DNA of 40,000 nt, from contig WHTW01000006.1 of assembly GCA_009377525.1 (NCBI GenBank), positions 1 to 40,000 on the forward strand, read 5' to 3'. The position numbers and the translations under genes were made by a program. The stretch is from Rhodospirillales bacterium. GTDB taxonomy: Bacteria; Pseudomonadota; Alphaproteobacteria; Reyranellales; Reyranellaceae. The notes under the pieces were generated by a model. That model did not search any database. It was not told the origin of the DNA and saw nothing but the letters and a program-made list of their open reading frames with translations. This document shows, one piece after another, positions 3,463-20,249 of the stretch (positions are counted from its first letter, which is position 1; the number at the start of each line of letters is the position of its first letter).

Positions 3463-3709
3463 CGGTGGTACTCCCTGTGTGGCACGACAACGGGTCGTCC
3501 GGTCGCAGGTTGCGTTCAAAAACAAGCCACCGGCGTGGCAGGAACTCATCGGATTGCGCAACCGCCGTTCGCTGCACTGCGTTCATGTTTTGCCGGTTTC
3601 TCCCACGTACCGGCCCCCGCCTCGAAGGCCGCTCCTCGACCAGGTCGGTGAGTGCGCTCGAGGCGGGGCCTGACGGAGAACGCGCGGCATGTCCGTCGCG
3701 GGGGACTGA

Positions 3710-4174
3710 ATGGCCGCCGAGAGCGCGGGTATCCTCCTGTACAAACGCGAAGGCCGCGGGTTGCTGGTGTTGCTGGTCCATCCCGGCGGTCCCTTCTGGC
3801 GCAACAAGAACGACGGAGCCTGGTCGATCCCCAAGGGCGAACGCGGCGGTGGCGAGGACGCGGAGACGACGGCGCGCCGGGAGTTCCTCGAGGAGTTGGG
3901 CGTCGTGCCGACAGGTGTGCTGATCCCGCTCGGACGCATTCGCCAGCGCGGCGGCAAACACGTCGATGGCTTCGCGCTCGAAGGCGATCTCGACGTCACG
4001 CGCATCTCTGGCAACACCTTCGAGATCGAATGGCCGCCACACAGCGGCCGGCGGCAATCCTTTCCCGAGGTCGATCGTGCGGCGTGGTTCTCGCCGAGCG
4101 AAGCGCGTCAAAAGATCAATGCCGGCCAGAGGCCATTCATCGACCACCTCGAAGAACTCTGTGCGAAGTCGTGA
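3710..4174 (+). CDS. NUDIX hydrolase (154 aa)
   Basis: Complete Nudix box GERGGGEDAETTARREFLEELGV fits GX5EX7REUXEEXGU. Confidence 0.85.
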   Translation: MAAESAGILLYKREGRGLLVLLVHPGGPFWRNKNDGAWSIPKGERGGGEDAETTARREFLEELGVVPTGVLIPLGRIRQRGGKHVDGFALEGDLDVTRISGNTFEIEWPPHSGRRQSFPEVDRAAWFSPSEARQKINAGQRPFIDHLEELCAKS

Positions 4175-4177
4175 GAA

Positions 4178-4199
4178 AGGCGGCCCTTGCGGGCCGCCT
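4178..4199. terminator. Bidirectional intrinsic terminator between convergent NUDIX and OmpA genes
   Basis: aggcggccc-ttgc-gggccgcct followed by cttctt; T/A-rich on both sides. Confidence 0.7.
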
Positions 4200-4217
4200 C
4201 TTCTTGGACGATCGATT

Positions 4218-4877
4218 TCAGCTCGGTCCGACGGGCCGGCCTGGCCAGCGGTAGCCGGGTGCCGGGAGCGGGATCTTGTGGGCGATCAAGGCATTCTCCA
4301 GCACGGGAATGTCGCCCTGGTAGTCGCCTGCTTCGCACTTGGCGATGGCCGCCGCTTCAGGCGTATCGAGCTGGGAGGTGCGGTACTCGCGCCACTTGTC
4401 GCTCAAGGCCTTGCAGTAGCTGCGCGGGTCGGAGAACACCGTGGTGGTCGAGACCATCTGGGTGCCATCGATCACGATTTCGACGCGCCGGTTCTGTGGC
4501 TCGCGCACACCGTCGCCGGTCTGCACCAGCAGGCCCGCTTCGCCGCGGCCGATCACCTGGATGGCCTCGGCCGGCACGCCTTGGCGGACCAGTTCGTTCT
4601 TCACCGCGTTGGCGCGGCGCAACGACAGTGCCATGTTGTAGTTCTCCGGTCCCGACGTATCGGTATGGCCGGTTGCCGTGATGCGCGCACTTCCGCGCGT
4701 CTTGAACGCGGCGGCTGCCTGTCCGATGGTCTGCACCGCCTGTTGCGACAGGTTCGAGCGATCCCAGTCGAAGAAGACCATGAACGACCGCGGCGCCGCG
4801 ACGGGCGGCGGTGGCTCCGAGGCGCAGGCGGCCACGAGCAGCGTCGTCGCAAGGACAACCAACAGTTTCCTGTGCAT
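4218..4877 (-). CDS. OmpA-family lipoprotein with a Cys-containing C-terminal extension (219 aa)
   Basis: Signal peptide and lipobox (LVAAC). OmpA_C motifs: ITATGHTDTSGPENYNMALSLRRANAV...NRRVEI. C-terminal domain is shared with the 27351-27983 paralog. Confidence 0.85.
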   Translation of the reverse strand: MHRKLLVVLATTLLVAACASEPPPPVAAPRSFMVFFDWDRSNLSQQAVQTIGQAAAAFKTRGSARITATGHTDTSGPENYNMALSLRRANAVKNELVRQGVPAEAIQVIGRGEAGLLVQTGDGVREPQNRRVEIVIDGTQMVSTTTVFSDPRSYCKALSDKWREYRTSQLDTPEAAAIAKCEAGDYQGDIPVLENALIAHKIPLPAPGYRWPGRPVGPS

Positions 4878-5030
4878 GATTTGCTCCCCTCAAAGCAGAG
4901 GCTTCGAAGGGGCGGGGCTCCCCTCCGGATCGCGCACCAACGTGTGCGTTCGAAGGGAAACGCCACAATCCTGCCCAGGGTCCCGCGCCGTGCAGAATGT
5001 CTGCGCAAGCCTGTTTTTTGCAGTGCCGGT

Positions 5031-6134
5031 TCAGGCAGCGAGCTTGTAGAGCTCCGCTACGTTGTCGCGCAGGATGCGCTTCTTCAGCTCGGGGCTGAGA
5101 TGCGCGGTCTGCTCAGCGATCACGTCCTGGCTGCGCGGCCAGGTGGAATCACTGTGCGGGAAGTCGCTGGCCCACATGAGCTGGTGAGGATCGAGCTGGT
5201 CGGCAAACCGGAAAGCCGTCCAGTCGTCCTGAAAGGTGAGCGCGATGTGCTTGCGGAAATACTCCGACGGCAGGCGCTGGAGTTCCTTGCCCTTCATCCA
5301 GTAGCGATGGCGCTTGTAGGCGTGGTCCATGCGATACATGAAATGCGGCGCCCAGCCTGCATCGGCTTCGACGCAGACGACGCGCAGCTTGGGATGCCGT
5401 TCGAACACGCCGGAATAGACCAGCATGCCCATGATGTCCTGACAGCCGCGGATGATCGACAGGAAGCTGTTAATCTTGGGTCCGCGCGGCTTGATCATGG
5501 TGTTGTCGCCGCTCGACGTCAGGATGTGGAAGCTGAGAGGCAGTTCGAGCGCAACTGCCGCCTCCCAGAACGGATCGAACGCGGGATCGTCGTAGTCCTT
5601 CTCGCCGGGATTACCCGGCATCATGACGCCACGAAAACCCATCGCCGTGATTCGCTCGAGATCCTCGATGCCTTCCTTGATCGTGCGTATGCAGGTCTGG
5701 CCCATCCCGATCAGGCGCTCGGGATCATGCGAGACGTAGGTCTGCAGCCAGCGATTGTAGGCGTCGAAGCACGCCTTCTTGTAGTCGAGGTCGGGATGAT
5801 TGCAGAGCAGCATGCCGACGCTGGGATAGATGACCTCGGCGGCAACGCCGTCCTTGTCCTGGTCGGCCAGGCGCCCGGTCGGATCCCAGCCGCTGCGGTG
5901 CAAATCGTCGAACCTGGCGCCGCCGATCCGGATATCCTTGGGGTCGACGCCGGCCGCGGCAATCAGGCCCATCGGCACCGGCGTCTTCATGCCCTCGACG
6001 ACGTAGATGTCGCCCATACCTTCCTTGTAGACGACGTGCGGCGCCCTCCCCCGCCACGCCGGGTCGATGTGATCGACATAGCAGTTGGGCGGCTCCGTGA
6101 TGTGCGAATCGGCCGAAATCGGACGCCAGTCCAT
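5031..6134 (-). CDS. Amidohydrolase-2 (ACMSD-like) family metal-dependent hydrolase (367 aa)
   Basis: N-terminal ISADSHITEP motif (metal-binding His), DFPHSDSTWP near the C-terminus, and typical PF04909-like length. Confidence 0.8.
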   Translation of the reverse strand: MDWRPISADSHITEPPNCYVDHIDPAWRGRAPHVVYKEGMGDIYVVEGMKTPVPMGLIAAAGVDPKDIRIGGARFDDLHRSGWDPTGRLADQDKDGVAAEVIYPSVGMLLCNHPDLDYKKACFDAYNRWLQTYVSHDPERLIGMGQTCIRTIKEGIEDLERITAMGFRGVMMPGNPGEKDYDDPAFDPFWEAAVALELPLSFHILTSSGDNTMIKPRGPKINSFLSIIRGCQDIMGMLVYSGVFERHPKLRVVCVEADAGWAPHFMYRMDHAYKRHRYWMKGKELQRLPSEYFRKHIALTFQDDWTAFRFADQLDPHQLMWASDFPHSDSTWPRSQDVIAEQTAHLSPELKKRILRDNVAELYKLAA

Positions 6135-6288
6135 TGGGTTTCCTCCTGCCTGCGCGGTCCGAATCGTAGGCAGACGCGGCGTCCCGCCGCAAGCTGGCGC
6201 GGAACGCCCGTTTCGGCGGGCGGCAACGGTTGAACCGGTTCCGGTGCTATGGCATACCCCGCCCCTCCGAGGCCTCCGGCCTCCGGGC

Positions 6289-6363
<75 letters not shown>

Positions 6364-6447: not shown

Positions 6448-8163
6448 ATGGCGATCCTGTGCATGGCGCGACCGTGGAAGCATCCGAAGACTGGCGTCTA
6501 CTATTTCCGCCGGGTGATCCCCGAGGGACTGCGTCCGTTCGTTCCCGAGGGCGACACGGCCGCGCCCGAGCGGCGCCTAGCGAAGCACGAATACAAGCGC
6601 TCGCTCCACACGAAGGATGCACCCACGGCAAAGCGTCTCTATGCGGATGCCGCTGCGATTTGCGATGACTACTTCTCCTCACTGAGAGCCGCGAAGGAAC
6701 GAGCAGCCGCCACTGAGGTAGGAGGGCTCGCCAGCCAAGCGGCCGGCTCCAGGCACGCCACACCCGAGGCCTCGGCCACCGGGCACCCGACGACGTTCTC
6801 CCTCCGAGCGCTCGCAGCGGAGCTTGGTCAAGAGATCATCCAGCGCAACGCCGGGGCGCCGCCGGCTGCCGCATTCAAGAACAACCGAGCGATACCGCCG
6901 GGACCCTGGGGTACTCCGAGAGAACCTTGGGCCAGCCATCGATACGCCCTGGCGACCAGCCTTCGCGCGAAGATGCGGGCCAGTCAGCATGAGTACGTGA
7001 CCACACCTTCAAGGGAGTTCCTCGGGGCACGCGGCATTACTCTGTCGCCCGATGAACAGCAGTGGGAAGAGTTCTGCGAGCTTTCCTGCGAGGCGATCGA
7101 CGCGGCCCTAGAAACGCTCCAGCGACGCTACCGGCACGGTGACAACGACACTGCCACGAGCGACGCACCGTTGGTCCAGCGCTTCCCCGTAGGGATGCCT
7201 GAGAGCCGCCCGAGGGTTGCTATAGCGCCGCTAGGCGCGGCTATCACGGGCCTCATTGAGACGTGGGCGAAGGGGCGCGAAAACCCGAGACAACGAACAC
7301 GCGAGCGTTTCGCTCGAAGGCTTGAACAGTTCTCAGCCTTCCTCAAGCACGATGACGCGATGGCCGTCACAAGCAAAGACCTGAGACGTTGGCGTGACCA
7401 CCTTCGTAATGAGGGCCGCACGGCAAAGACTGTGAACGAGGATTGCGTTGCGGCGGTGACCACTGTCTTTCGGGCAGCATCGGCAGAGGAAGTTCTCCCG
7501 ACCTACCCCTTCCACGATTACAAGGCACTGAGAGAAGACAAAACGAAAGAGAACGCCCGCCGCCCCTACACCGAAGAGGAAGCCCGAAGGCTTCTCACTT
7601 GCGCTCGATTGCGCACGGACGCGCTACGCTGGCTGCCGTGGCTCATGGCCTATACCGGCGCGCGCATTGGCGAGGTTGCCCAGCTTCGCAAGGAAGACGT
7701 GAGAACCGAGCACGGCATTAAGGTCCTGCGGATCACGGGCGGCACTGAGAAGGGGCATGAGGTCAAGACCGGCTCGTCACGACGCGACGTACCGTTGCAC
7801 CGCGCGGTAATAGACGAAGGCTTCTTGAAGTACGTTGGCGGCGCGAAGGAGGGACCGCTCTTCTCCGACCTTCCGCCGGGCCGTCTCGGCAAGCGTGGGG
7901 ATGCGGCCTCCACTGAGTACCGCCGTTGGGCGCGCGGGGTGGTAGGCATAACGGACAAGCGGGCTGTGGCGCACTCTTGGCGTCACCGCATGGAAGACCA
8001 GCTACGCGAGATAGAGGCACCCGAGGAGGTAGCAGCGGCGATCACCGGCCGGACCCGCCAAGGGTCGCGGGCTGGATACGGCAAGGGACCGTCACTGGCG
8101 CTCCAGGCACGATGGCTGGCAAAGATACCGGCGGTGAAGCTCGGGGCGGACACCCGCACTTAG
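6448..8163 (+). CDS. int: Tyrosine-type site-specific integrase (571 aa)
   Basis: ATG at 6448 preceded by aggagagg; the track ORF start at 6319 lies inside the tRNA. N-terminus ARPWKHPKTGVYYFRRVIP is typical of alphaproteobacterial island integrases. Catalytic region: AYTGARIGEV...HSWRHRMEDQL...GYGKG (R..HxxR..Y). Confidence 0.9.
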   Translation: MAILCMARPWKHPKTGVYYFRRVIPEGLRPFVPEGDTAAPERRLAKHEYKRSLHTKDAPTAKRLYADAAAICDDYFSSLRAAKERAAATEVGGLASQAAGSRHATPEASATGHPTTFSLRALAAELGQEIIQRNAGAPPAAAFKNNRAIPPGPWGTPREPWASHRYALATSLRAKMRASQHEYVTTPSREFLGARGITLSPDEQQWEEFCELSCEAIDAALETLQRRYRHGDNDTATSDAPLVQRFPVGMPESRPRVAIAPLGAAITGLIETWAKGRENPRQRTRERFARRLEQFSAFLKHDDAMAVTSKDLRRWRDHLRNEGRTAKTVNEDCVAAVTTVFRAASAEEVLPTYPFHDYKALREDKTKENARRPYTEEEARRLLTCARLRTDALRWLPWLMAYTGARIGEVAQLRKEDVRTEHGIKVLRITGGTEKGHEVKTGSSRRDVPLHRAVIDEGFLKYVGGAKEGPLFSDLPPGRLGKRGDAASTEYRRWARGVVGITDKRAVAHSWRHRMEDQLREIEAPEEVAAAITGRTRQGSRAGYGKGPSLALQARWLAKIPAVKLGADTRT

Positions 8164-8172
8164 GCCCGAGCG

Positions 8173-8379
8173 GTGCACGATGCGTTCGGGACGACCCCGA
8201 CGAAGACCGCGAGGTTTGCCCAGATACTCCGCGAGGAGTTCGCCAAGATGTACGCCAGCGATCCATTTGAATGCTTGCGCGCGTCATTACGCTTCTGGGG
8301 CGTGACACTGCCCGAGGAGCCCGCCATGGGCACCCTGGACCCCGCCCAGATCGCCCACGCCGAATACCTCTTCGCGTAG
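8173..8379 (+). pseudogene. Relic of the C-terminus (motif C to end) of a second T7-type RNA polymerase
   Basis: VHDAFGTTPTKTARFAQILREEFAKMYA...EYLFA aligns with the end of the full-length RNAP in this island (VHDSFGTTPERAGDLAKVLRETFSEMYA...LYAFG) and with T7 RNAP IHDSFGT...FAFA. It begins 9 nt after the integrase stop, in the same frame. Confidence 0.7.
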
Positions 8380-8410
8380 CCCAATACATTGTAAAGGCTA
8401 TGCTTTCTCT

Positions 8411-8800
8411 CTGAGTATAACCATTGCGGCCCAAGCAACATCGGGACGGACACCGCCCCGCAAGGGAGCCCGCCATGTAACCCCATCAATCGGAGGTCAC
8501 GAATGCCCCATCTCACCATCCGCCGCTCGGTCGGCCAGATCACACTCACGGCCGCGCCTAGCCGCGCCTGTATCAGCGGACCGTCGTGAACCCCCGTTTG
8601 TCGCGATAACCCATTGGTGGCGCTGAGGGTTATTCGCTGAGTATAGGTAATGTGGGCCGGGCAACATCGGATTGACCCCCCTTGGCGGGGGCCAAAGCAG
8701 GGCTCAAGCCACTGCGTTTGCGATGCTTTACCTCTTTCGTGCCCATATGACGGACAGCCGCACCTAGCCGAGCACGAACGTCCCCCGTTCTCTTTTGTTT
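8411..8800 (+). repeat. Two diverged tandem copies (about 226-bp period) of a noncoding unit with conserved blocks
   Basis: CTGAGTATA at 8411 and 8637; GCAACATCGG at 8435 and 8661 (the same 24-nt offset in both copies); GCCGC(G/A)CCTAGCCG at 8551 and 8757; CCCCCGTT at 8591 and 8782. Confidence 0.6.
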
Positions 8801-8887: not shown

Positions 8888-9103
8888 ATGACAAATGATC
8901 TCATCTCTCTGGCCGACGCCGCCGCCGAGCTTCGCATTAGCACGAAGACCCTCGATAGGTGGCGACGTGCCGGCAAAGGCCCCGACTACCTTCGATCCGC
9001 AAGCGGCCACGTCCACTATAGCCGGCAGACCCTCGATACTTGGCGTGCACAGCAAGTGACCACCGAAAGCGTTCGCTACCTCTTGCTTGAGGGCGTTGCG
9101 TGA
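8888..9103 (+). CDS. AlpA/excisionase-like helix-turn-helix DNA-binding protein (71 aa)
   Basis: LISLADAAAELRISTKTLDRWRRAGKGPDY...HYSRQTLDTW has an HTH_17/MerR-type excisionase pattern. It is the first gene after the integrase module. Confidence 0.7.
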   Translation: MTNDLISLADAAAELRISTKTLDRWRRAGKGPDYLRSASGHVHYSRQTLDTWRAQQVTTESVRYLLLEGVA

Positions 9104-9576
9104 AAGCGCGCGAGGCGACATCGCCGCTCCAAGCCATTCGAGCCAAGTGTTTGGACTGTTCAATGGGCAGTCCCGCCGAGGTTCGCCGCTGCCATTTGAC
9201 CGACTGCGCACTGTGGCCGTTTCGCCTTGGCAAGGGGGCACCCATCTCCGAAGCCCAACGGGAAGCTCGCCGTGCGTCCGTCCGTAAAGCCGCCGCCAGC
9301 CACCTGAAGCCCCATACGGTACGGCGATTTGGAACAACGGACGAGACAGGTGGGGCTACCCCCCCGGTGAGACTGCGCTCTAAAAAGTCCCATACGGTAC
9401 GGGGGACACCGAGCGAAGCGCGGGCCGACGCTCTCGCCCGACGCCAAGCCGCAACCATCGTCGACAAGGGTATCCGCTATCGGAAGAAGCCTCTTACCTT
9501 TGAACAGGAGTACCACCTCATAATGCGGAAGCCGAGGACTGCCCACCCGAGCGGAGCGAGGGGCTCCCGTGGATGA
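9100..9576 (+). CDS. Cys4 zinc-ribbon protein common in mobile elements (158 aa; C-terminal half doubtful)
   Basis: GTG start overlaps the upstream stop (GTGA). IRAKCLDCSMGSPAEVRRCHLTDCALWPFRLGKG gives C-x2-C-x10-C-x4-C. The C-terminal half contains DNA-level repeats at 9311/9389 and 9546. Confidence 0.55.
   Translation: MKAREATSPLQAIRAKCLDCSMGSPAEVRRCHLTDCALWPFRLGKGAPISEAQREARRASVRKAAASHLKPHTVRRFGTTDETGGATPPVRLRSKKSHTVRGTPSEARADALARRQAATIVDKGIRYRKKPLTFEQEYHLIMRKPRTAHPSGARGSRG
9311..9402 (+). repeat. 14-bp perfect direct repeat CCCATACGGTACGG x2, 78 bp apart
   Basis: Copies at 9311-9324 and 9389-9402, with similar flanks (aagCcccatacggtacggCg and aagTcccatacggtacggGg). Confidence 0.8.
9546..9565 (+). 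repeat. 20-bp motif cccgagcggagcgaggggct (left member of a perfect inverted pair)
   Basis: Exact reverse complement of 19521-19540. Confidence 0.9.
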
Positions 9577-9778
9577 AGCCACGATGCAACGCATTCGGGA
9601 CAGCATTCAGCACGCCATCGACAACCGCACCTATTCCCCGCCGCAGCACCAGGAGCCCACTGACTGCTTCCGGGAAATCCTCGATATCGCACGAGACGCT
9701 CTTTGCACCTTCGGCTGTAGCCTCCGCGACCTAGCGGCGCTCATCGAGACGCACCTAGTCGCCGCGATCCTTGTATAG
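9569..9778 (+). CDS. Hypothetical protein (69 aa) with an N-terminal MDEAxxxRIRxSI module
   Basis: GTG start overlaps the previous gene by 8 nt. The N-terminus MDEATMQRIRDSI recurs twice at the start of the next gene. Confidence 0.4.
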   Translation: MDEATMQRIRDSIQHAIDNRTYSPPQHQEPTDCFREILDIARDALCTFGCSLRDLAALIETHLVAAILV

Positions 9779-9784: not shown

Positions 9785-12700
9785 ATGGACGAGGCACTTC
9801 TAAATCGTATTCGAGCCAGCATAGCCGGCGCTCCAGTCCCGCCAGCCACTTCGCCACCGACAGCCTCGCCCAAGGCCGGCGCTATGGACGAAGCTACGAT
9901 GGAAAGAATTCGAGCCAGCATCGAGCGTGGGCGTACCGTCCCACCTCGCCCCACGGATCAAACTGCAATCGCGAACCCGACACACGCGGGCCTTCCACAG
10001 TCTGAGCCTCACAGCGCCGACGCCGCGCCCGGCCCGAACCTTGCTGCAGCCGTACAGGGCAACCGGGACACCCTCGGGATGCTCGCCAACACGCTCCTAG
10101 GGGGCGCCCGAGACGCTCTCCAGGGCACCCTCGAAACAGTCCATAGCGCAGCCGGCCTCGCGGGTGACGTAGCGGAGAGCATGGGCACGCTGCCCGATAG
10201 CTTCCCGCGGCCTACCGCCGACAACGCGCCGAAGCTTCCCGAAGTCCCCCGTGCGGACGAGAGCACGAACGAAGGCGTCGCCATGAACGTCGCCCGAGAC
10301 CTGGAGCGCTTCGTGCTCGGCTTCGTGGGTGGTGGTGCGATCCTGAGAGGTGCGGGAGTGGCGACGAACACCCTTCGAGGAGCGGCCGGCGCTGGCTTCG
10401 TGGGAGACTTCGTGGTCACGGGAGCCAACGACAACCGCTTGGTCGACCTCTTCGAGAAGGTGCCAGCGCTACGGGGGCCGTTCCTTGAGTACATCTCGAC
10501 GGACGGTGATGAGGACCTCCTCAAGCACAAGCTTGGCGCGGCCGTAGAGGGCCTGTTCTTCGGGGGAGCTATCGACGGGCTCCAAAGGATCGCTGGCGTT
10601 ATCCGAAGGTCCATCAAGGCGGAGAAGACGGGCGGTGCTGAGGCGGCTGAAAGGGTGATCCAAGAGTCAGCGGAGGAGATGCAGGAGGCTGCCACGGAGA
10701 TCAATGCGTGGAGCGGCGCACCTAGCGAGGCTATCGACCCAGGTGCTCCCGTGGCGACGCACCCACCGGTCCGGCTGGACGAACGTGGGCAAATCGAGAT
10801 GTTCCCCGAGGTGGTCCGCCGTGAGGAGGCGATCGAGGATATCCAGCTTCAAATCAAGGGCGACCGCTACCTCGACCCTGAGACAGGCAAAGAGAAGCTA
10901 CTTCCCATCTCCAATCGAGCGCGAGAGGAGTTGACCAGTGTTGCCGCCGATCCTAACGCGCCCTTGCACATCGACAAGCTCACCCCGGAGACCCGAGAAG
11001 AACTACTCCGTGCCCTTGCGTCGGACAATGAAGCGGCTCGCTTCTTCAATCCGAAGACTGTTCGCGGCAAGACGTTCGCGCTGGACGATGCGCGGCGGGC
11101 CGACTTCGACGCGGCTATGGAGCGCTCGCTCTCGATCCCGTATGCCACGCTGAAAGCCGAGAACCCCGGCGCGGCTATCGAGGACACCCTCAGCACCTTC
11201 CTGAACTACCGCTACATGGAGAGCGCCGATAGCGTGAAGGTGACGCTGGACGAGATGGCCACGGCTATGGAGCCTCAGGTTGCAAAGCACCTCGGCGGCT
11301 TTCCCCAGACGCACGCGCAAGTCCAGGAGACGGCAGGATGGCTCGGCATGAAGCCCGAAGTCCTCCTTGCATCACTGTCCCAGCAAGCACGCGCTGCCGA
11401 ACACATGCCCGCTCTTCTCGTGGCAGGTAAGACGTGGATACAAAGCCTCGCCCGCGACATTCACCAGATTAGCAAGGCGATCGATAGCGGCATGGCGACG
11501 GACACCGCGAAGATAGAGCTTGTGCGCCGGCAGGACATCCTTGCCGATCTCATCTCGACGTTGAAGTCCGTCCAGACAGCGAGCGCGCGCACGACAGCGG
11601 CGGGCAGGATCAGGACGAGCGACGCGCTCACCCATGAGGAAATGGGAACGCTGCTTCGCGAGGTGGGCGAAGACAACTTCAAGCTCATCAGCCGCAAGCT
11701 CGCGCTTACCGAGGGCAACCCGCAGGCGGTCATCTCCATCCTTGAGCCAACGTTCGGGCAGAAGTCGTGGGGCGTGGCGAACGAGTTCTGGATCAACGCG
11801 ATCCTCAGTGGCCCGGCAACGCACGTTATCAATCTCACGACGGGCTTGCGTAACACTGCCCTCTTCCCGCTCTTCAAGATCACTGGCGGCCTGCTTACGG
11901 GCGACATGAAGTCGGTCCGCATCGGCATCGGCCAGTACGCCGGCCTTCGTGGTGCGGTCTTCAACAGCTTCGAGATGGCCAAGCGGTCCCTCCTCACGGA
12001 GAACGCCTACGTTGATGCGAGCTTCCACCAGATCGAGCGCGAGCGGCTCTGGATCAAGGCGGACACCTTCAGCACGGACCCCAGCGGCACGCTTGGGCAA
12101 GGCATCGAGGCGCTCGGCACGGCCATTCGTATGCCGTCGCGGTTCCTCACGGCTGAGGATGAGTTTTTGAAGCAGTTGACCTATCGTGCTTCGGTGACGG
12201 CGAGGGCTCACGAGGAAGCTATTGAGCGGGGATTGTCGGACAACCGGACGGTCTCCTACTTCGTGGACGGCGAGAAGAAGATGATATCCGAGGTGGATGA
12301 GTACGTCCGTGATCGGATGCAAGAAGCGTTTCACCCCAGGATGGAACACGGGCTAGACCAAGCGGCCCTTCGGGATGCTCGCCGTGCAACGTTCACGAGC
12401 CCGCTCAAGACAGCGACTTGGGGCAACATGACCAGTCTTGGCGAGATAGCCCAGCAAGCCGCAGCAAGGGCACCGTGGATACGACACACGATCCTGCCGT
12501 TCACGAGGGTGCCCACGAACATCTTCCGCGAGATGATTTTGGAGAGCCCACTGGCTCCGATCCGGAAGCAGTTCTGGACCGACCTGAGGGCCGGCGGAGA
12601 AGCACGGTCCGACGCTATCGGGCGCGTGGCGCTCGGCACAACATTCTGGACTGGCGCGGCAATGCTCGCGAGCGAAGGGATCATTACCGGCAAGGGTCCT

Positions 12701-13711
12701 ACTGATCCGAAGCTACAGAAGCAGTGGCGAGCGGCGGGCAATCAGCCGTATTCAATCCGGTTCGCGAGCATGGGGCCGGACGGCAAGGACCTGTTCATCT
12801 CCTACAACAGGTTCGACCCGACAGCCGGTGTGCTCGCGCTGGCGGCCGACTTTGCGTACATCGCCGCTCACGTAGACGAGCGCACGCAAGATGCGCTGGC
12901 CATGACGCTCACGCTCACGCTGGCGAACAATCTCAACAGCAGAACTTATCTTCGTAGCCTGACGGAGTTGACTTCGATCCTCGGGTCTAATGATCGCGCC
13001 GGCCCGCATCTAGTGGAGCGCTGGTTGAATTCGCGGGCTGCTTCCTACGTACCCCGGATCGTGTCGGCGGTTAATCCAGATGATACGTTGAGGGATGCCC
13101 GTGACGCGCTGGAAGCGATCCAGGCGAGGATACCGGGATTGAGTGACGGACTACCGCCTCGGCGAGACACCTTCGGCGAGCCCATCGTGCCGTCCGTTGG
13201 CTGGCCGTACAGCCAGGTCAATCCCTTTGCAATAGCGGTGGGCAAGGATGGAGCGGCGCGGCGCGAGCTAGGTTACTGGGCTGAGAGCGAAACCCGCAGT
13301 CAATTTGAGATGCCCTCGCCGAAGATCGATGGACTTATCGATCTACGCGACGCCAAGAACTCACAGACTGGCCAGAGCGGCTATGACCGCTGGCTCGAAA
13401 TCCTGACTGAGCCAAGGTTCGGAGGAAAGACCGCAGAGGAGCGGATTGACGATATCGTGGCAAGCGATGGCTACAGGAATTTGAAGGAGCGTGGCGTTGA
13501 AAGCCCGATCTATCGCCGGCACCCCGCCGTTGAATTCTTGAGAGAGCAACTTGGATCACACTACGGCATTGCCCGCGAACTCATGCTTGCGGAAGTCGGC
13601 TTCGAAGACCTCCGCGCCGCGTTGCAAATCTATGAGGCGAGCAAGCGCGCCGTCCCTGTGGGCGCCGTAGCACCGTCCAACCCGGCGCTTGATCAGTTGC
13701 TAAAGCGGTAG
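9785..13711 (+). CDS. Large orphan protein (1308 aa), function unknown; possibly a phage internal/ejected virion-type protein
   Basis: Uninterrupted 3.9-kb ORF with non-shadow composition. The N-terminus has two MDEAxxxRIRASI modules and an Ala/Pro-rich linker. I found no NTPase, polymerase or lytic transglycosylase motif. Confidence 0.85.
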   Translation: MDEALLNRIRASIAGAPVPPATSPPTASPKAGAMDEATMERIRASIERGRTVPPRPTDQTAIANPTHAGLPQSEPHSADAAPGPNLAAAVQGNRDTLGMLANTLLGGARDALQGTLETVHSAAGLAGDVAESMGTLPDSFPRPTADNAPKLPEVPRADESTNEGVAMNVARDLERFVLGFVGGGAILRGAGVATNTLRGAAGAGFVGDFVVTGANDNRLVDLFEKVPALRGPFLEYISTDGDEDLLKHKLGAAVEGLFFGGAIDGLQRIAGVIRRSIKAEKTGGAEAAERVIQESAEEMQEAATEINAWSGAPSEAIDPGAPVATHPPVRLDERGQIEMFPEVVRREEAIEDIQLQIKGDRYLDPETGKEKLLPISNRAREELTSVAADPNAPLHIDKLTPETREELLRALASDNEAARFFNPKTVRGKTFALDDARRADFDAAMERSLSIPYATLKAENPGAAIEDTLSTFLNYRYMESADSVKVTLDEMATAMEPQVAKHLGGFPQTHAQVQETAGWLGMKPEVLLASLSQQARAAEHMPALLVAGKTWIQSLARDIHQISKAIDSGMATDTAKIELVRRQDILADLISTLKSVQTASARTTAAGRIRTSDALTHEEMGTLLREVGEDNFKLISRKLALTEGNPQAVISILEPTFGQKSWGVANEFWINAILSGPATHVINLTTGLRNTALFPLFKITGGLLTGDMKSVRIGIGQYAGLRGAVFNSFEMAKRSLLTENAYVDASFHQIERERLWIKADTFSTDPSGTLGQGIEALGTAIRMPSRFLTAEDEFLKQLTYRASVTARAHEEAIERGLSDNRTVSYFVDGEKKMISEVDEYVRDRMQEAFHPRMEHGLDQAALRDARRATFTSPLKTATWGNMTSLGEIAQQAAARAPWIRHTILPFTRVPTNIFREMILESPLAPIRKQFWTDLRAGGEARSDAIGRVALGTTFWTGAAMLASEGIITGKGPTDPKLQKQWRAAGNQPYSIRFASMGPDGKDLFISYNRFDPTAGVLALAADFAYIAAHVDERTQDALAMTLTLTLANNLNSRTYLRSLTELTSILGSNDRAGPHLVERWLNSRAASYVPRIVSAVNPDDTLRDARDALEAIQARIPGLSDGLPPRRDTFGEPIVPSVGWPYSQVNPFAIAVGKDGAARRELGYWAESETRSQFEMPSPKIDGLIDLRDAKNSQTGQSGYDRWLEILTEPRFGGKTAEERIDDIVASDGYRNLKERGVESPIYRRHPAVEFLREQLGSHYGIARELMLAEVGFEDLRAALQIYEASKRAVPVGAVAPSNPALDQLLKR

Positions 13712-13714: not shown

Positions 13715-14218
13715 GTGACTACCGCCAAGTTACACTCAGCTGAAGAGCTAGCAGTGGTGCGGGCAACGTTTGCGTTGGACGGGGACGAGCTTCTTCGCAA
13801 AGGCAAGCCGGTCAAGCACCGGGCCAATGCCAACAAGTCGCCGTACAAATCCGTCGAATTCAGGTTGGGCAACGCGCGAGTGCATTGGAAGCTGTCTCGG
13901 CTGAAATTCTTCTTAGCTCATGGCTGGCTCCCGCCCGTGGTCGACCACAGAAACGGAGACAGGTTGAACGACAGTCTTGCTAATCTTCGGGCAGCCTCTT
14001 ATGCCCAGAACAACCAAAATTCGCGACGCCGAAAGACCCGTCTTGGTCTCCCGAGAGGCGTGGAGCGGAACGGCAAACGGTTTGTGGCTAGGCTCAAAAC
14101 GGATGGCCGCATGAAATACCTGGGAACTTACGACACCCCCGAAGCCGCGTCTCTCGCCGTCCAGGAGAAGAGCAAAGAGCTTCGTGGCGCTTTCCATCGG
14201 TACAGGCGGAAGGGGTAA
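13715..14218 (+). CDS. HNH endonuclease with C-terminal AP2 DNA-binding domain (homing-endonuclease type, 167 aa)
   Basis: VDHRNGDRLNDSLANLRAASYAQNNQN (HNH_3 pattern) followed by GVERNGKRFVARLKTDGRMKYLGTYDTPEAASLAV (AP2 pattern). Starts 4 nt after the 1308-aa gene. Confidence 0.8.
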   Translation: MTTAKLHSAEELAVVRATFALDGDELLRKGKPVKHRANANKSPYKSVEFRLGNARVHWKLSRLKFFLAHGWLPPVVDHRNGDRLNDSLANLRAASYAQNNQNSRRRKTRLGLPRGVERNGKRFVARLKTDGRMKYLGTYDTPEAASLAVQEKSKELRGAFHRYRRKG

Positions 14219-14410
14219 AGGGCCATCGGCTCCTACCAATGCACTTCCCGCAATCGGCGAAGGCGGAGAGCGAGAGCGAGAAGATATGTGCGGCTCGCCG
14301 AGGGCGCTCCCGATAACTCCCTCAATAGAGAGGTGACTGATTTGCCCGATACCAAGCCGACACGGGACGATTTGATAGAAGCTGGATTTGAAAGTCCGTC
14401 GACGAAGGAG

Positions 14411-14464
14411 CCGAGCGAAGCGAGCTACTCACCGCCGCCAACGCGGAAGCCGAGCGAAGCGAGG
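14411..14464 (+). repeat. Two direct copies of the CCGAGCGAAGCGAG(G) island motif
   Basis: Copies at 14411-14424 and 14450-14464. The same motif occurs at 19326-19340 and, as a partial copy, at 9409-9420. The G-variant occurs at 9546, 16390 and 19521. Confidence 0.8.
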
Positions 14465-14612
14465 CCTTCGCCGCCCAACAAGGTTCCACCGGGGCTCCCT
14501 CAGCCGCGCCCCGTTGACGGCGACTTCCATTCAAGCCCCGTTCGTCGCTCTTGGGATCGCCTCCGCATAGCCGCCGTTCCATCACCCAACAAAAAGGGAT
14601 AACCCAACCTCC

Positions 14613-15104
14613 ATGTCTTTCACTTCCAAAAACAAGAACAAGCCCACCACGATCGACGGCCACGCGCTTCCCCCTGGCATTCGCCCGAAGAACGCGACGA
14701 TGCGTCTTGTCCGTGACAAAGACGGCAAGGCTTCCTTCAAGATCGTAGAGCTAGGCGTTCCCGAAACCGTGACGGTCGGCCGAACCACAATCAATCACCT
14801 CGCAGACGGTCCTTACAGCCGCCGGGAAACCGCCGAGATCAACGCGGAGCAACTCCGCAAGGGCTTGCCAGTTCAGCGCGTACAACAGCACTGGCAGCAT
14901 TCGGTGTCGGCCGACTTGACCGAGAAGCCGAGTGAGCTTGCCCGGAGCCTCGCAAGCGACAAGGGCAAGGTGGGCGTCGCCAAGAAGGCCGGCGCGAAGT
15001 ATGCCGAAGACGAGAACGCGCGCCGCAAGAGTTACAACGGCCCGCAGCAGACTTCCGTGTCCGTGCGGATGGGTGAACGCGCCCCGCGCAAGGCCGGGAC
15101 CTAA
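14613..15104 (+). CDS. Hypothetical basic protein (163 aa)
   Basis: ORF on the island coding strand with non-shadow Lys-rich composition. No recognisable domain. Confidence 0.5.
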   Translation: MSFTSKNKNKPTTIDGHALPPGIRPKNATMRLVRDKDGKASFKIVELGVPETVTVGRTTINHLADGPYSRRETAEINAEQLRKGLPVQRVQQHWQHSVSADLTEKPSELARSLASDKGKVGVAKKAGAKYAEDENARRKSYNGPQQTSVSVRMGERAPRKAGT

Positions 15105-15111
15105 GCGCGCG

Positions 15112-15411
15112 ATGACGGCTAAGACACGCGTGCTCGACGTTGAGGCCCGCATCGCGGTACTTGAGGTACTTCTAGAGCAGTCCCCAGCCTCTCCCCCGCT
15201 GGCTCCCGGCGGCCCCGTGAAGATGCGCGTGAGCAACTTGGAAGTTCGCCTGGAGGCACTGGAGGCGGCTGTCGGTGGTGGCTATGAGCCGCCGTTCGAT
15301 CCGAGCGCGACGTTACCGCTTGCATGGTGGTCGCCGTCGCCGTGGAAGAGAAGGTTGGAGAAGCTGGAGGCGCGCTTGGAGGCACTGGAGACGTTCGTAG
15401 CAGCCCTTTGA
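15112..15411 (+). CDS. Coiled-coil protein, SPWKR paralog A (99 aa)
   Basis: Internal ATG at 15112. Heptad-like repeats VEARIAVLE / LEVRLEALE / LEARLEALE and the motif WWSPSPWKRRLE. Paralogous to the next gene. Confidence 0.55.
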   Translation: MTAKTRVLDVEARIAVLEVLLEQSPASPPLAPGGPVKMRVSNLEVRLEALEAAVGGGYEPPFDPSATLPLAWWSPSPWKRRLEKLEARLEALETFVAAL

Positions 15412-15412
15412 G

Positions 15413-15712
15413 TTGACCGTGGCTCAGTATCGAGGACTGCCCCCAAAGGCGCGAGTGGAAGCCGTTGAGGCGCGCGTGGCGGCCTTGGAAAGCGGTGGCG
15501 GTGGGGCCTCCGATCTCTCCGTGATAGCCGCGCCCCGCTTCGCTATGGTGCACTTGTCAAACTTGGAGACGCGCATGAGGGCGCTTGAGATCACGCAAGA
15601 GGGATATAGCGCCGCCCGGACGTGGCCATCGTGGTCCCCGTGGAAGCGTCTAGAGGCACTTGAGACGCGAGTGGCAGCCTTGGAGAGCGCGAGCCCTAGC
15701 ACGTCGCCGTAG
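15413..15712 (+). CDS. Coiled-coil protein, SPWKR paralog B (99 aa)
   Basis: Starts 2 nt after paralog A (TTG, or GTG a few codons in). VEARVAALE / LETRMRALE / LETRVAALE and WSPWKRLE. Same length as paralog A. Confidence 0.55.
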   Translation: MTVAQYRGLPPKARVEAVEARVAALESGGGGASDLSVIAAPRFAMVHLSNLETRMRALEITQEGYSAARTWPSWSPWKRLEALETRVAALESASPSTSP

Positions 15713-15856: not shown

Positions 15857-16351
15857 ATGCCGATAGGTGCCAGTCTTATTGCCAAAGCCGAAGTCCGAAC
15901 GCTTCTTTGTGTTGATGACAAATGCCTTCACGCGTGGCGCTCGCGTCATGCCGGTCCTGCTCGGGAAGGGGACGGATACGACCTCGCCCAAGTTGAGGAA
16001 GTGAGAGCACAAATGCTCATACTCGGCAGCTATGGGCTCCAGGTGAAGAATGCCGAGCGGCCGTTGGGCTCGATAACCTTCTCACGAGAAGACGACACTG
16101 AGACACTAGGCGCGGCCCAAGTTAAGAAACTGTTGGCCATCGATCAAAGCATCTTGTCTCACTGGCTTGCCGCTCTCCCATTTCCCATTGGGCCAATACC
16201 GAAGAGGACGAAGATCAAAGGCCCGTGGAAGTACCGGAAGAACCAAGTGCTAGAAGTGCGGGCTGCGCTTCTCATTCTAGGTGATAGGTACAAGTTGGGC
16301 CTAACCGACACTCCTCATTTCCTGACACACGCGGGACCGACTTGGCAGTAA
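15857..16351 (+). CDS. Hypothetical protein with two internally duplicated HTH-like modules (164 aa)
   Basis: Module 1: KAEVRTLLCVDDKCLHAWRSR...VEEVRAQMLILG. Module 2: AAQVKKLLAIDQSILSHWLAAL...VLEVRAALLILG. This is the most AT-rich coding stretch of the island. Confidence 0.55.
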   Translation: MPIGASLIAKAEVRTLLCVDDKCLHAWRSRHAGPAREGDGYDLAQVEEVRAQMLILGSYGLQVKNAERPLGSITFSREDDTETLGAAQVKKLLAIDQSILSHWLAALPFPIGPIPKRTKIKGPWKYRKNQVLEVRAALLILGDRYKLGLTDTPHFLTHAGPTWQ

Positions 16352-18978
16352 TCCCGGTGGACGCCGACTTGATAGCGCCGCTAGAGGAGCCCTCGCTCCG
16401 CTCGGGCGCGGCTATGCGCGAGCAGGAGAACTTGGAGCGCGAAGCGTTTGAAACGGGAAGGCGGCGGCTCAATGCATTCCTAAGGAAAGCCCGAGAGACA
16501 GGCACGGAGAGCTTCACAGCGCCGGGACAGTGGATTGTCCGGCAAGTGATCGGCCCCATGGCGGATATGCTGTCGCAAGAGTTTGTGACCAGCAATAGCG
16601 CCCGTGCCACGAGAGGCGGAGCGATGATCCACGCCATCAAGGACATGGACCCGCTCTTCCTTTGCGCCGTTGCGGCCCGCACGGCTCTAAACGGTGCGTG
16701 GTCTCGGGACAACGGAGGAAAGCTCTCGCTAACGCTGGTGTCCGCCAAGATCGGCGCGGCCATCGAAGACGAGTGGCGGTGGCACGAGTGGCGAAAGCTC
16801 GACCCAAAGCAAGCGCGATGGGCACAAGACGTTGTGAACGAAGGTCGTAGTGCGGGCGGAGCCCGTTACAAGCGAGCAGCGGCGCGCAAGGTGGGCGGCT
16901 TGTTCCTCCCGGAAGAGCTATTGGCTCCGTGGCCGTCCGACAAGCAAGTAGCGCTCGGGTTGCGCTTCGTGGACTACATGGTTAGCCCGTCAGTCGGCCT
17001 TTTCGAGGTGACTAAAATGTTGTCCGGACGCCGTGGACCCTCAAAGGCCAAGCTCGCACTTAAGCTCAGCCCAATCGCAGTCCAGCGAGCCGACGAAGTC
17101 GTAGACCTCTTCGCCACTTCTCAGGCGCTCACGTGGCCGCTCATCGTTCCGCCAAAGCCCTGGACGGCGCCTACTGGAGGCGGATTTTGGTTCCGCGAAA
17201 GGACAGCCACCGACATTTGCCCGGAAGGTCTCAAGCCGTTCCCGCTGGTCCGATGGGCAAGCCCCGAGCAACGCAAGGCGCTCGATCGCGCTGATCTCTC
17301 CACCGTGTACGCGGGTCTCAACGCGGTCCAAGAGACTCCCTGGAGGATCAACAAGCGCGTCCTTGGGGTTTGGTCTGCGATGCTCGACGGCGGCTTCGGC
17401 CCAACAGACGATATCGTCGAGTGGGATAACGAAGAGCCGCCCGAGCGCGTCCCCGATGACGAGTGGGAAGACATGTCGGACGAAGACCGCCTCGAACACC
17501 GGCACGAAATATCAGAAGTCTTTGGACGAAACCGCAAGGCCGTCTCAAAGCGCGTGCGTCAGCATCGCCTCAAGCGTGTGGTTGATCGCTTCGCCAAGTA
17601 TCCGGCGATCTACTTTGCTTACAACTGTGACAGACGAGGCCGCGTCTATACATCGTCTTCGGATATCTCGCCTCAAGGGAGCCGTCTAGAGAAGGGACTG
17701 CTGGAGTTTGCGGTCGGGGATGAGCTTTCGGATACAGGCGAGGCCCCCTCGCCGATCCGCTCGGGCGTGTACTGGCTCAAGGTGGTAGTGGCGAACTACT
17801 ACGGCTTCGACAAGGTGAGCTTCGATGACCGGGCGAAGTGGACAGACGCAAACAAAGAGATGATCCTCTCGGTAGCAGCCCGTCCTCTTGATGACCAAAG
17901 ATGGTGGAGCGCGAGCGAGAAAACGAGATGGCAGTTCCTTGCCGCGTGCTTTGCCTATCAGGAGTGGAAGGAAGAGACGACGGCCGGCCGGCGGTACGTC
18001 TGCCACTTGCCGGTGATGCTCGACGGCACTTGCAATGGGCTCCAGCATTGGGCGGCATTATTGCGTGACGAGAAGGTTGGGCAGTTCGTCAATCTTGTGC
18101 CCGGTGACAAGCCCATGGACCTCTACGGGAGGGTTGCCAGTAGGGCGAGGGAGGAGATCGAAAGAGCGGTCGAGAGACGGCAACAGTGGGCGCTCGAATG
18201 CCAAGCGCTCGGGATCGACCGCAACTTCGCCAAGCCGGTCGTCATGGGCTTCCCTTACGGGCGGACCCGGTGGTCGATCTACGAGGAGATTGAGAAGGCG
18301 TTGCGGCGGAAGATAGAGAAGAGCGACGGCTCAAGTCCAAACTGGTGGACCGACAAAGAGGCTCGCTCGGGTGTCGTCAAGTTCCTCGTGGAGACGCTTT
18401 GGACGGCCACGATTGCGGAGACTGAGAAGCCCGATGCGGGGCGCAAGTATCTACAAGCGGTTGCCCAAGAGTGGAAGAAGGCCGCACCGGATACGCCGTT
18501 GGCTTGGATGAGCCCGAGCGGCTTCCCCGTGGTCCTGGCGCGGCGTGACCAAGGGCCAATCGAAGGGCGCGTCCGGGAGAAGCTCTTGGGAAAGCTTGTC
18601 ATGCCCAGATTGTGGGCCGGCAAGGGTGCGCTCTACTGGTCGAAGCTGATCTCAGCCATTGCACCCGGCTTCATTCATAGCTTGGACGGAGCCCACTTGG
18701 TCATCGCGCTTGGGGCGGCGGCCCGTTCGGAGATCAATCAGCTAGCGTGTGTGCACGATAGTTTTGGGACAACCCCGGAACGGGCTGGTGATTTGGCGAA
18801 GGTGCTCCGGGAGACGTTCTCGGAGATGTACGCCGAGGGTGATCCCATAGCCGCCCTTGAGGAAGCCCTCAGGCAAGCCGGCGGGCACCCGAACGCAGCA
18901 CCGATCCCGCACGGTCGACCGGAACCGGGGGGCCTTGACGTGGGCGCCATGCGCGGTTCGCTCTACGCGTTCGGGTAA
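16342..18978 (+). CDS. T7-like single-subunit DNA-dependent RNA polymerase (about 873-878 aa; start uncertain: TTG 16342, GTG 16357 or ATG 16414)
   Basis: Motif A [22 protein letters not shown] matches T7 [34 protein letters not shown] matches T7 WFPYNMDWRGRVY. Motif B region is [10 protein letters not shown] and motif C is VHDSFGT. The C-terminus is LYAFG. The length is close to the 883 aa of T7 RNAP. Confidence 0.93.
   Translation: [878 protein letters not shown]
16390..16406 (-). repeat. Copy of the CCCGAGCGGAGCGAGGG island motif (inverted orientation) inside the RNAP 5' end
   Basis: ccctcgctccgctcggg is the reverse complement of the 9546 motif, one C shorter. Confidence 0.75.
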
Positions 18979-19562: not shown

Positions 19563-19838
19563 ATGATCCACCGTCGACGAAGCTCTCGACGAAACCCCCG
19601 TTGTTCCCGAGACCTCCACCGAGGCGGAGCCGATGGGCTACCGAGACGTTCCCAGGGACTTCGCCCGGAGGCCCCCTGGGCCATGGCTGGTGATGGCACC
19701 ACTCGACGCAAACATCTGGGTACCTACGACACTCCCGAAGAAGCCGGAGCGGTCGCCAAAGCAGCCCGCGTGGAGCTTGCAGGCGTGTTCCTGCCCGGCC
19801 CCACTCGATACCGCGCGAAGATGGCGTCCGGCCGATGA
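19563..19838 (+). pseudogene. Relic of an AP2-domain (homing endonuclease-type) gene
   Basis: ...RPEAPWAMAGDGTTRRKHLGTYDTPEEAGAVAKAARVELAGVF parallels GRMKYLGTYDTPEAASLAVQEKSKELRGAF of the intact HNH-AP2 gene. No HNH part is present and the upstream frame is junk. Confidence 0.5.
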
Positions 19839-20150
19839 TTTGGGCTGGGGAAAAATTCCAGTTGGGAATATACGCAAACCCCTAAACGTATCACCTCGGC
19901 GCGCGCGACCCCCCTCTACCCGGCCCGGCCGCCCCTGGCTGGGGCTGGGCACCGCTTCTACGTGTGGGCTCCAGCGAAGCGTTTACGTGCCGCCGCCCAC
20001 GGGAAATCCTTCGCCGCGCCGCGCCCACACCAAGCGGAGCCGAAGGGGTCATCCGTCACTCAATCGGTCACCTCTCTGCCCTAACTCACTGAGCGTGCTC
20101 GGCGCACATGGGATTGCTCGTCCCATAGCGCCGCTTGGGCGCGGCTATCT

Positions 20151-20249
20151 GGGCAGAAAACCCCATCGAACTGCCCTCGGGAAACCCCAATGAATTCAAC
20201 GGCACACTCCCTCGGATTTGCGTGGGCAGAAACCAATTGATTGTTGCCC
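20151..20249 (+). promoter_or_regulatory. Candidate recombinase-binding (res-like) dyads upstream of the serine recombinase
   Basis: GGGCAGAAAA-N10-CTGCCC (20151-20176) and GGGCAGAAAC-CAATTG-ATTGTTGCCC (20224-20249; imperfect dyad centred on CAATTG), ending 43 nt before the ATG. Confidence 0.35.

Follow-up and report, generated by a model that had tools for sequence, protein, structure and literature searches.

The window analyzed here, a stretch of 40,000 nucleotides (nt) from a Rhodospirillales bacterium of the family Reyranellaceae (contig WHTW01000006.1), contains an uninterrupted open reading frame (ORF) of 1308 codons on the plus strand, at positions 9785 to 13711. The protein of 1308 amino acids (aa) that it encodes is a gp16-class internal virion (ejection) protein of T7-like phages and an ordinary member of a very large family. 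Its gene is part of a mosaic island, non-autonomous and of a type that recurs, with modules that are common to temperate T7-like phages. The new aspect is this location of the gene in an island, and not the protein itself. The best reading of the island, which we consider probable, is that of a reduced, satellite-like derivative of temperate T7-like phages that carries a gp16-class ejection protein.

The 1308-aa protein belongs to the gp16 class

The protein matched the PHROG 6651 family "internal virion protein" with an E value of 1.8e-49. A tblastn search matched 47 phage records with E values down to 1e-51, and about half of the listed matches carry the annotation "internal virion protein (D)". 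These phages comprise HTVC019P-type pelagiphages, Roseobacter CRP phages (roseophages), and cyanopodoviruses. In the cultured Roseobacter phage CRP-804 (Autographiviridae), the genes ahead of the homologue are, in this order, tail tubular protein B, two small ones, and one of 707 aa. The window gene is composed of a variable N-terminal region, which extends to approximately position 10740, and a conserved core at positions 10742 to 13708. A phmmer search of 1.84 billion cluster representatives, with this core (the C-terminal 989 residues of the protein) as the single query, retrieved 9,380 representatives at an E value of ≤1e-3 and 2,232 at ≤1e-30, which are mostly 1,100 to 1,300 aa long. The original prediction, made by eye from the DNA and its translations, had called the protein an orphan; the PHROG match, the phage records, and the thousands of core matches show that this label is wrong, whereas its guess of a gp16-class protein, which was based on size, proved right.

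Eleven relatives (P0002 to P0012) share 60 to 79% identity with the window protein. Four of these (P0002, P0003, P0007, and P0009, with 63 to 79% identity) are encoded on T7-like phage contigs of 32 to 41 kb, in the order portal, scaffold, capsid, tube, nozzle, gp14, gp15 (640 to 651 aa), gp16, and tail fiber, with the terminase gene following later. The position described for gp16 is the third in the gp14-gp15-gp16 operon, with the nozzle before it and the tail fiber after it (PMC8954989). The relatives on the four phage contigs occupy this position, whereas the window gene does not, as gp14 and gp15 are absent. The place of the relatives between gp15 and the tail fiber thus identifies the window gene as the gp16 of that lineage.

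A Pfam scan of the protein detected no domain at an E value of ≤0.01, including no lytic transglycosylase domain, in agreement with the earlier observation that no enzymatic motif could be recognized. The missing transglycosylase domain had also been treated as diagnostic. Its absence is confirmed, but not its diagnostic value, because this domain of T7 gp16 is phage specific and not universal (PMC8954989), so that its absence here is no argument against gp16 membership. A sequence search of the PDB with the gp16 profile gave chance matches only. The AlphaFold models of residues 320 to 1308 and 1 to 332 consist of nearly all helix but are of low confidence (mean predicted local distance difference test [pLDDT] values of 50 and 61, respectively), and Foldseek retrieved nothing from the PDB with them at an E value of ≤0.001. 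With models this poor, the structural comparison that had been proposed as a check is uninformative and not negative. Hydropathy peaks are present only at residues 176 to 194 and 1010 to 1030. Pattern scans derived from the gp16 alignment found no relative in genome, viral, or metagenome contigs.

The ratio of nonsynonymous to synonymous substitution rates (dN/dS) of the gp16 gene is 0.15 between the window and the copy of the phage contig L001 by the Nei-Gojobori method, and approximately 0.17 on the window branch by a three-taxon decomposition. Among three related islands described below (L003, L005, and L006), it is 0.13 to 0.15.

The protein resembles T7 gp16 (internal virion protein D) in its size (1308 versus 1318 aa), its all-alpha structure as predicted with low confidence, its basic end (...LLKR), the profile match, and the combination of a conserved C-terminal core with a variable N terminus. 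In its close relatives, the gene is also the last of gp14-gp15-gp16 and precedes the tail fiber. It differs from T7 gp16 in having a clade-specific helix motif instead of the N-terminal lytic transglycosylase domain, in the presence of two tandem copies of this motif plus one on a separate 69-aa ORF, and in the location of the gene outside a phage, without adjoining gp14 or gp15. Neither the sequence nor the fold searches made here showed similarity to T7 gp16 itself.

A conserved N-terminal motif is present in three copies

The helix motif has the consensus MDEAxxxRIRxSI. A regular-expression scan of the six frames of the window revealed three copies and no others, which shows that their occurrence is not due to chance. 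Copy A lies at the GTG start of the 69-aa ORF (V/MDEATMQRIRDSI, positions 9569 to 9607), copy B at codon 1 of gp16 (MDEALLNRIRASI, positions 9785 to 9823), and copy C at codon 34 of gp16 (MDEATMERIRASI, positions 9884 to 9922). The long ORF and the three copies reported in the original prediction are therefore real. Each of the nine related loci that contain the motif has a single copy, at codon 1 of gp16, and three copies are found only in the window. The motif was not found in the related island L004, where the gene call begins further downstream. MDEAxxxRIRxSI is the conserved extreme N terminus of this gp16 clade, and it has been multiplied only in the window.

The homologues align with the window protein from residue 34 on, which makes residues 1 to 33 an extra in-frame module. 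Copy B is the nearest to the consensus of the homologues, and copies A and C are alike over 32 residues (E value of 0.008), while the remainder of the 69-aa ORF has no homologue. At conserved residues, about half of the codons differ synonymously between the copies (6 of 8 for A and B, 5 of 10 for A and C, and 4 of 9 for B and C). Since the codons differ while the residues are kept, the copies are old and conserved as peptides, and are not recent duplicates of DNA. The 69-aa ORF itself (positions 9569 to 9778, plus strand) is preceded by a GAGG Shine-Dalgarno sequence 8 nt upstream, and its GC content at the second (GC2, 0.41) and third (GC3, 0.74) codon positions is a coding signature.

AlphaFold predicts helices at residues 3 to 14 and 36 to 49 (block-mean pLDDT of approximately 65 to 82), each followed by a linker with a pLDDT of <50. 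The prediction of an N-terminal helix on a disordered, proline-rich tether suggests a docking peptide, and the motif may thus serve as a tethered docking helix for a core partner, with gp15 and the portal as candidates. The repeats had been explained either as duplicated translation-start modules or as a repeated interaction peptide; conservation at the peptide level and predicted helices on disordered linkers fit the second explanation better than the first.

The gene resides in an island integrated in a tRNA gene

The left end of the island lies in a tRNA-Thr(GGU) gene (positions 6289 to 6363, plus strand), identified by ARAGORN and as the sole match of an Rfam scan. The 3' end of this gene (positions 6341 to 6363) forms the left attachment site, attL, and an exact 23-nt copy of it (positions 21561 to 21583, plus strand) forms attR at the right end. 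This exact repeat (TTCAATCCTGTCCGGCAGCACCA) occurs in the window only at 6341 and 21561 and delimits an island of 15.2 kb integrated in tRNA-Thr. A tandem-array origin is ruled out, as there is no internal att copy. The GC content of the island is 61.6%, versus 65 to 67% in the flanks, and ordinary host genes lie to the right of attR. The order within the island is integrase, truncated RNA polymerase, HTH_17, 158-aa ORF, 69-aa ORF, gp16, HNH, five small ORFs, full-length RNA polymerase, a non-coding stretch, and serine recombinase.

Among the island ORFs, Pfam and PHROG scans detected no gene for a capsid, portal, tail, terminase, or DNA polymerase and no primase, helicase, or Rep family; the composition profile of the island shows no AT-rich, origin-like dip. 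The earlier suggestion of a satellite- or defense-type island is borne out insofar as the island is non-autonomous, flanked by att sites, and devoid of morphogenesis and replication genes, with an architecture that recurs elsewhere. A scan for sigma-70 promoters and terminators showed no enrichment compared with shuffled sequence.

The island contains two genes for single-subunit RNA polymerases (ssRNAPs). The first is a truncated 3' end of 68 codons (VHDAFGT...YLFA; positions 8173 to 8379, plus strand), recognized by comparison with the polymerase P0064 and located directly after the stop codon of the integrase. It is identical to the C terminus of P0064 in 66 of 68 residues (97%). P0064 is the RNA polymerase of the 40,653-nt phage contig (L001/L014) that carries the closest gp16 (79% identity). 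Positions 8170 to 8594 of the window are collinear with positions 4078 to 4525 of L014, which contain the 3' end of the polymerase gene and the next gene, with 83 to 100% nucleotide identity; a degraded copy of this 60-aa phage gene follows the polymerase remnant at positions 8496 to 8594. Upstream of its polymerase gene, the phage carries an integrase of its own, which differs from that of the island. The second ssRNAP, a divergent full-length protein of 878 aa (positions 16342 to 18978, plus strand), matched Pfam RNA_pol with an E value of 4e-79 and PHROG 414 with an E value of 4e-182. Its best relatives are 44 to 46% identical, which places it in a deeply divergent lineage, and the alignment shows no variation at the residues that correspond to polymerase motifs A, B, and C.

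The tyrosine integrase (571 aa; positions 6448 to 8163, plus strand) belongs to the backbone of the island. It has an N-terminal DUF6538 domain in addition to Phage_integrase and SAM-like domains in Pfam, and it matched PHROG 1 with an E value of 1e-25. It shares 49% identity with the integrases of the related islands L003, L004, and L006 and is unlike the 367-aa integrase of phage L014. The library searched held nothing relevant on DUF6538. An AlpA/excisionase-like HTH_17 gene (positions 8888 to 9103, plus strand; Pfam HTH_17 E value of 1.7e-7; PHROG 66) heads the operon that contains gp16 and is 41 to 52% identical to the HTH_17 genes that stand ahead of gp14 in L003 to L006. We take the Pfam family HTH_17 to include AlpA. 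The next gene, a 158-aa ORF with a Cys-rich N terminus (CLDC...C...C; positions 9100 to 9576, plus strand), occupies the position of gp14 and gp15 in the sister islands. It had no family match in Pfam, PHROG, or PADLOC and no homologue in any of the related loci fetched. HTH_17, the 158-aa ORF, the 69-aa ORF, gp16, and HNH are joined by stop/start overlaps or gaps of 3 to 7 nt: the stop codon of HTH_17 overlaps the start of the 158-aa ORF, the stop codon of which overlaps the GTG start of the 69-aa ORF, and the HNH gene begins 3 nt past the stop codon of gp16.

This last gene (positions 13715 to 14218, plus strand) is homing-endonuclease-like and combines HNH_3 and AP2 (Pfam HNH_3; PHROG 99 with an E value of 2e-31; PADLOC "HEase"). 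Homologues are found in island L004 (44% identity) and in phage L002, where the gene follows the terminase gene (40% identity). In islands L003, L005, and L006, a related 245-aa gene is present at the 3' junction of gp16, and the L003 copy is a weak HNH_3 match. The HNH gene may mark a boundary of cassette exchange. Near the right end of the island lies a small serine recombinase of the resolvase/invertase type (positions 20241 to 20915, plus strand; Pfam Resolvase E value of 2e-41; PHROG 125), which shares 32% identity with the resolvase of L010, an island in Hyphomicrobium. The resolvase occupies an equal relative position across all islands.

Between the HNH gene and the full-length polymerase, the ORFs at positions 14932 to 15411 and 15413 to 15712 (plus strand) are adjacent paralogues with 38% identity over 96 residues and sub-threshold Pfam matches to a coiled-coil region (DUF7310). 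A 16-mer, CCGAGCGAAGCGAGGC, occurs at positions 9409, 9547, 14411, 14450, and 19326 of the plus strand, with inverted copies near 16390 and 19524; two of its copies lie within a 39-nt tandem repeat in the ORF at positions 14288 to 14602. A 37-nt direct repeat is present upstream of HTH_17 in intergenic DNA (positions 8408 to 8444 and 8634 to 8670, plus strand, 226 nt apart). It occurs nowhere else in the window and had no good match across the 12 related loci scanned, and a diverged counterpart of its first copy lies past the end of the polymerase gene in phage L014. A role of this repeat as a phage promoter is unsupported, since no phage or island locus contains it in repeated form. An ORF at positions 21025 to 21528 was ruled out as a gene by its GC content at the three codon positions (GC1/2/3). 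Just upstream of the tRNA, a 755-aa ORF (positions 3966 to 6233, plus strand) without a Pfam or PHROG match has an atypical distribution of GC over the codon positions (GC1 of 0.79 and GC3 of 0.63) and may be a misframed or unusual gene.

Related islands share modules with temperate T7-like phages

Differing subsets of the genes for RNA polymerase, gp14, gp15, and gp16 are present in five or six other islands that are integrated at tRNA genes. L003 makes up a whole contig of 15.5 kb, and a search for circularity found no terminal overlap. L004 spans 20.4 kb with host genes on its flanks and a 19-nt att repeat at tRNA-Ser. Further islands are L005, L006 (also seen as L007 and L008), and L016, which is integrated at tRNA-Ser in a Reyranella metagenome-assembled genome. 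The common order in L003 to L006 and L016 is integrase, cargo, (RNA polymerase), HTH_17, gp14, (89-aa gene), gp15, gp16, 245-aa HNH-like gene, non-coding stretch, and resolvase. Sister islands have cargo of defense type within their att boundaries, namely, PIN_12, TIR, AAA_15/21, and an NmeDI_C-like gene, at positions 2493 to 3551, 16339 to 17193, and 18972 to 20927 of L004 and 3093 to 4229 of L003; the cargo of L004 comprises PIN_12, TIR, and AAA_15. In the chromosome of Hyphomicrobium sp. CS1BSMeth3, L010 consists of tRNA-Gln, integrase, a gp16-like gene, RNA polymerase, and resolvase; the gp16-like protein (1733 aa) belongs to PHROG 6651 and is only 24% identical to that of the window. In a census of 80 genomic ssRNAP loci, approximately 60 are canonical prophages with primase-helicase and DNA polymerase 4 to 8 kb downstream of the RNA polymerase, and L016 is the only clear island of the window type.

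The modules of the islands are closely related to those of phages. The gp14, gp15, and gp16 core of L003 are 87 to 90% identical to those of phage L002, and the nucleotide similarity ends exactly at the gp16 stop codon. The RNA polymerase of L006 is 86% identical to that of the same phage (a contig of 41,120 nt), with the similarity restricted to this gene. The backbone genes of the L003 type (integrase, HTH_17, and resolvase) were not found in the approximately 38 kb fetched from each of L001/L014 and L002/L013. L003 and L004 share 80% identity in the resolvase but only 47% in gp14 and gp15. The backbone is thus more conserved than the cassette, which suggests cassette replacement on a persisting backbone.

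Islands and phages also share non-coding DNA. The gene-free, near-terminal stretch that follows the phage terminase gene has two segments in common with the non-coding stretch of the islands, with 80 to 88% identity. The second of these, of approximately 65 nt (...CAGCCCGGGATATTC...GACCCCCCTCTA), is also kept in phages L001 and L009 and in L016. It is located at positions 14221 to 14291 of L003, 12263 to 12333 of L005, 16086 to 16155 of L006, and 15724 to 15783 of L016 among the islands, and at positions 23679 to 23748 of L001, 23070 to 23139 of L002, and 21965 to 22034 of L009 among the phages. An nhmmer profile made without the window gave one match in its 40 kb, at positions 19856 to 19918 of the plus strand (E value of 5e-4). 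The resolvase gene is found a few hundred nucleotides downstream of this element, as it is in the other islands. Candidate functions of the element are a signal for genome ends or packaging, an early promoter, and a site for a recombinase. A 186-aa ORF that overlaps the element (positions 19633 to 20193) has a flat GC1/2/3 profile and is probably not coding.

A cultured strain, Enhydrobacter aerosaccus ATCC 27094, harbors a T7-like prophage (L017; NZ_FUWJ01000005.1, positions 209211 to 231571), the primase-helicase and DNA polymerase of which share approximately 71% identity with their counterparts in phage L001/L014. The strain and its prophage could provide a host and helper for experiments.

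Discussion

In the reading that we favor, gp16 of the related phages would be packed in the capsid core and, by analogy with T7 gp16, would leave the particle at infection and build the section of the DNA conduit that lies in the inner membrane and cytoplasm. The islands, with their subsets of RNA polymerase, gp14, gp15, and gp16 on an island-specific backbone, would exchange these modules with contemporary phages. The window copy would be a rearranged member of this family that lost gp14, gp15, and the first RNA polymerase and gained a second polymerase. Both the two extra N-terminal modules and the absence of gp14 and gp15 are best explained by a rearrangement where the gp16 cassette has its 5' edge, after which the modules would have been kept as peptides. 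The island might then act as a satellite-like hitchhiker on L001-type phages, and its gp16 would be made during helper infection and enter helper-built particles.

The island resembles the phage-inducible chromosomal islands (PICIs) of Gram-negative bacteria and other phage satellites, such as P4, capsid-forming PICIs (cfPICIs), and PICI-like elements (PLEs), in several respects. With Gram-negative PICIs it has in common its size of approximately 15 kb, its flanking att sites, the integrase at its left end, and, as in the sister islands, an AlpA-type HTH_17 gene with a putative regulatory role at the head of a rightward operon (PMC6092414). Lysis, head, tail, and terminase genes are absent from the island; defense-type cargo in the sister islands and sequences in common with a putative helper phage (modules 77 to 97% identical) are further satellite-like traits. 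In contrast to PICIs, no pri-rep module or origin was recognized in the window island, and it carries a gene for a virion structural protein, gp16, to which the sister islands add gp14 and gp15. For these two reasons, the island should not be filed as a PICI. It differs from PICIs and other satellites also in its ssRNAP and in its putative helpers, which are T7-like podoviruses. To our knowledge, the combination of a virion structural gene of this kind and a single-subunit RNA polymerase is new among the satellite classes described so far, and we know of none among P4, PICI, cfPICI, and PLE that parasitizes T7-like phages or has ejection proteins or an RNA polymerase of its own. A literature search returned no description of T7-like phage satellites or of islands with ejection proteins plus ssRNAP, which is an absence of evidence within the library searched.

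With the integrated temperate T7-like phages (for example, L001/L014, L017, and approximately 60 of the 80 genomic ssRNAP loci), the island has in common the ssRNAP, gp16, the near-terminal non-coding element, and integration beside a tRNA. It is not an intact T7-like prophage, as only RNA polymerase and gp16 are present: the primase-helicase, DNA polymerase, portal, capsid, tube, nozzle, fiber, lysis, and terminase genes are all missing. Its integrase is of the DUF6538 type and has 571 instead of 367 aa, and it adds HTH_17 and a serine recombinase, neither of which was found in the portions of those phages that have been sequenced.

Several observations weigh against a satellite-like derivative. 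No island has a recognizable replication module or small terminase, and no excised or encapsidated form of an island has been seen. The content of modules is variable, which also fits slow decay: L016 is devoid of gp16, L003 to L005 of RNA polymerase, and the window and L010 of gp14 and gp15; a 192-aa gene replaces gp15 in L006; and L004, like the window, keeps a truncated polymerase remnant, in both cases from the C terminus. The order of the island modules follows the phage map, which fits simple deletion within a prophage. In a set of 15 billion proteins, the gp16, RNA polymerase, and HNH proteins of the window are each singletons at 90% identity and thus provide no population evidence for this particular island. 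The match of the window to the near-terminal element is modest, and the AlphaFold models are of low confidence and without a structural match to T7 gp16.

A more far-reaching version of the satellite-like reading is possible, but we hold it only tentatively. According to it, the window island, L003 to L006, L016, and L010 would constitute an undescribed satellite class of temperate T7-like podoviruses, with a DNA-entry toolkit of their own (gp14, gp15, gp16, and ssRNAP) and the near-terminal element of the helper. These islands would swap cassettes, possibly via HNH, and travel in helper capsids, with the extra N-terminal helices of the window gp16 and the 69-aa peptide as competitors for its partner in core assembly.

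A rather unlikely alternative, although the most serious one, is that the island is what decay has so far left of a T7-like prophage or an older chimeric element. In this case, gp16 and RNA polymerase would be intact because of recent deletion or gene conversion by phages and would have no present role, and the extra N-terminal copies would be neutral scars. The truncated polymerase (8173 to 8379) and the degraded 60-aa gene are what decay would leave behind, as are the missing gp14 and gp15 and the loss of different modules from different islands; the collinear module order, the lack of replication and packaging genes, and the singleton status of the island point in the same direction. However, ORFs of 1308 and 878 codons are both open, and the dN/dS of the window branch is approximately 0.17. 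The deletion junctions between HTH_17 and gp14 and between gp16 and the HNH-like gene are common to islands whose gp16 genes have diverged to a dS of 0.6 to 0.8, and the contrast between resolvase and gp14/gp15 in L003 and L004 implies cassette replacement on a backbone that persists. Tight coupling of the genes, conservation of the motif copies as peptides, and the retention of a second, full-length polymerase after the loss of the first also argue against mere decay.

It is improbable that the island is an anti-phage exclusion element, in which gp16 (joined by gp14 and gp15 in the sister islands) would act as a decoy or dominant-negative subunit that poisons the core of L001-type virions during assembly or blocks the incoming ejectosome at the envelope, HNH would cut the phage genome, and the N terminus of the phage gp16 would lose its partner to the extra helix and the 69-aa peptide. 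Such a function is consistent with cassettes that track contemporary phage alleles (79 to 97% identity), with the defense-type cargo of the sister islands (PIN_12, TIR, AAA_15/21, and NmeDI-like), with the HNH gene that adjoins gp16 in the islands, and with a free-standing 69-aa peptide that bears the N-terminal helix motif. On the other hand, PADLOC detected no known defense family in the window island beyond a weak homing-endonuclease match, purifying selection is equally strong on island and phage gp16 and nothing points to a crippled variant, and exclusion alone leaves the retained near-terminal element and RNA polymerase unexplained. The idea of the original prediction that the protein is the prime effector candidate of a defense or satellite island, of a new kind and unrelated to T7-like core proteins, would suit the lack of a Pfam domain and of PDB sequence and Foldseek matches, but it is hardly tenable against the internal virion profile match (PHROG 6651), thousands of homologues, and relatives within complete T7-like structural modules, with gp14-gp15-gp16 synteny in four phage contigs and a cultured Autographiviridae phage; a profile match of this kind, combined with the structural module in relatives, is what the original prediction had named as its refutation.

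The significance of a satellite-like derivative depends on whether T7-like phages mobilize these islands. If they do, satellite biology would be extended to a major phage group, and the islands would provide a natural system for studying the recruitment of ejection proteins to the capsid core via the N-terminal helix. They would also demonstrate an exchange of ejectosome cassettes between phages and chromosomal islands. If the islands are only remnants, they would still constitute a record of which parts of T7-like prophages persist and of their recombination with circulating phages.

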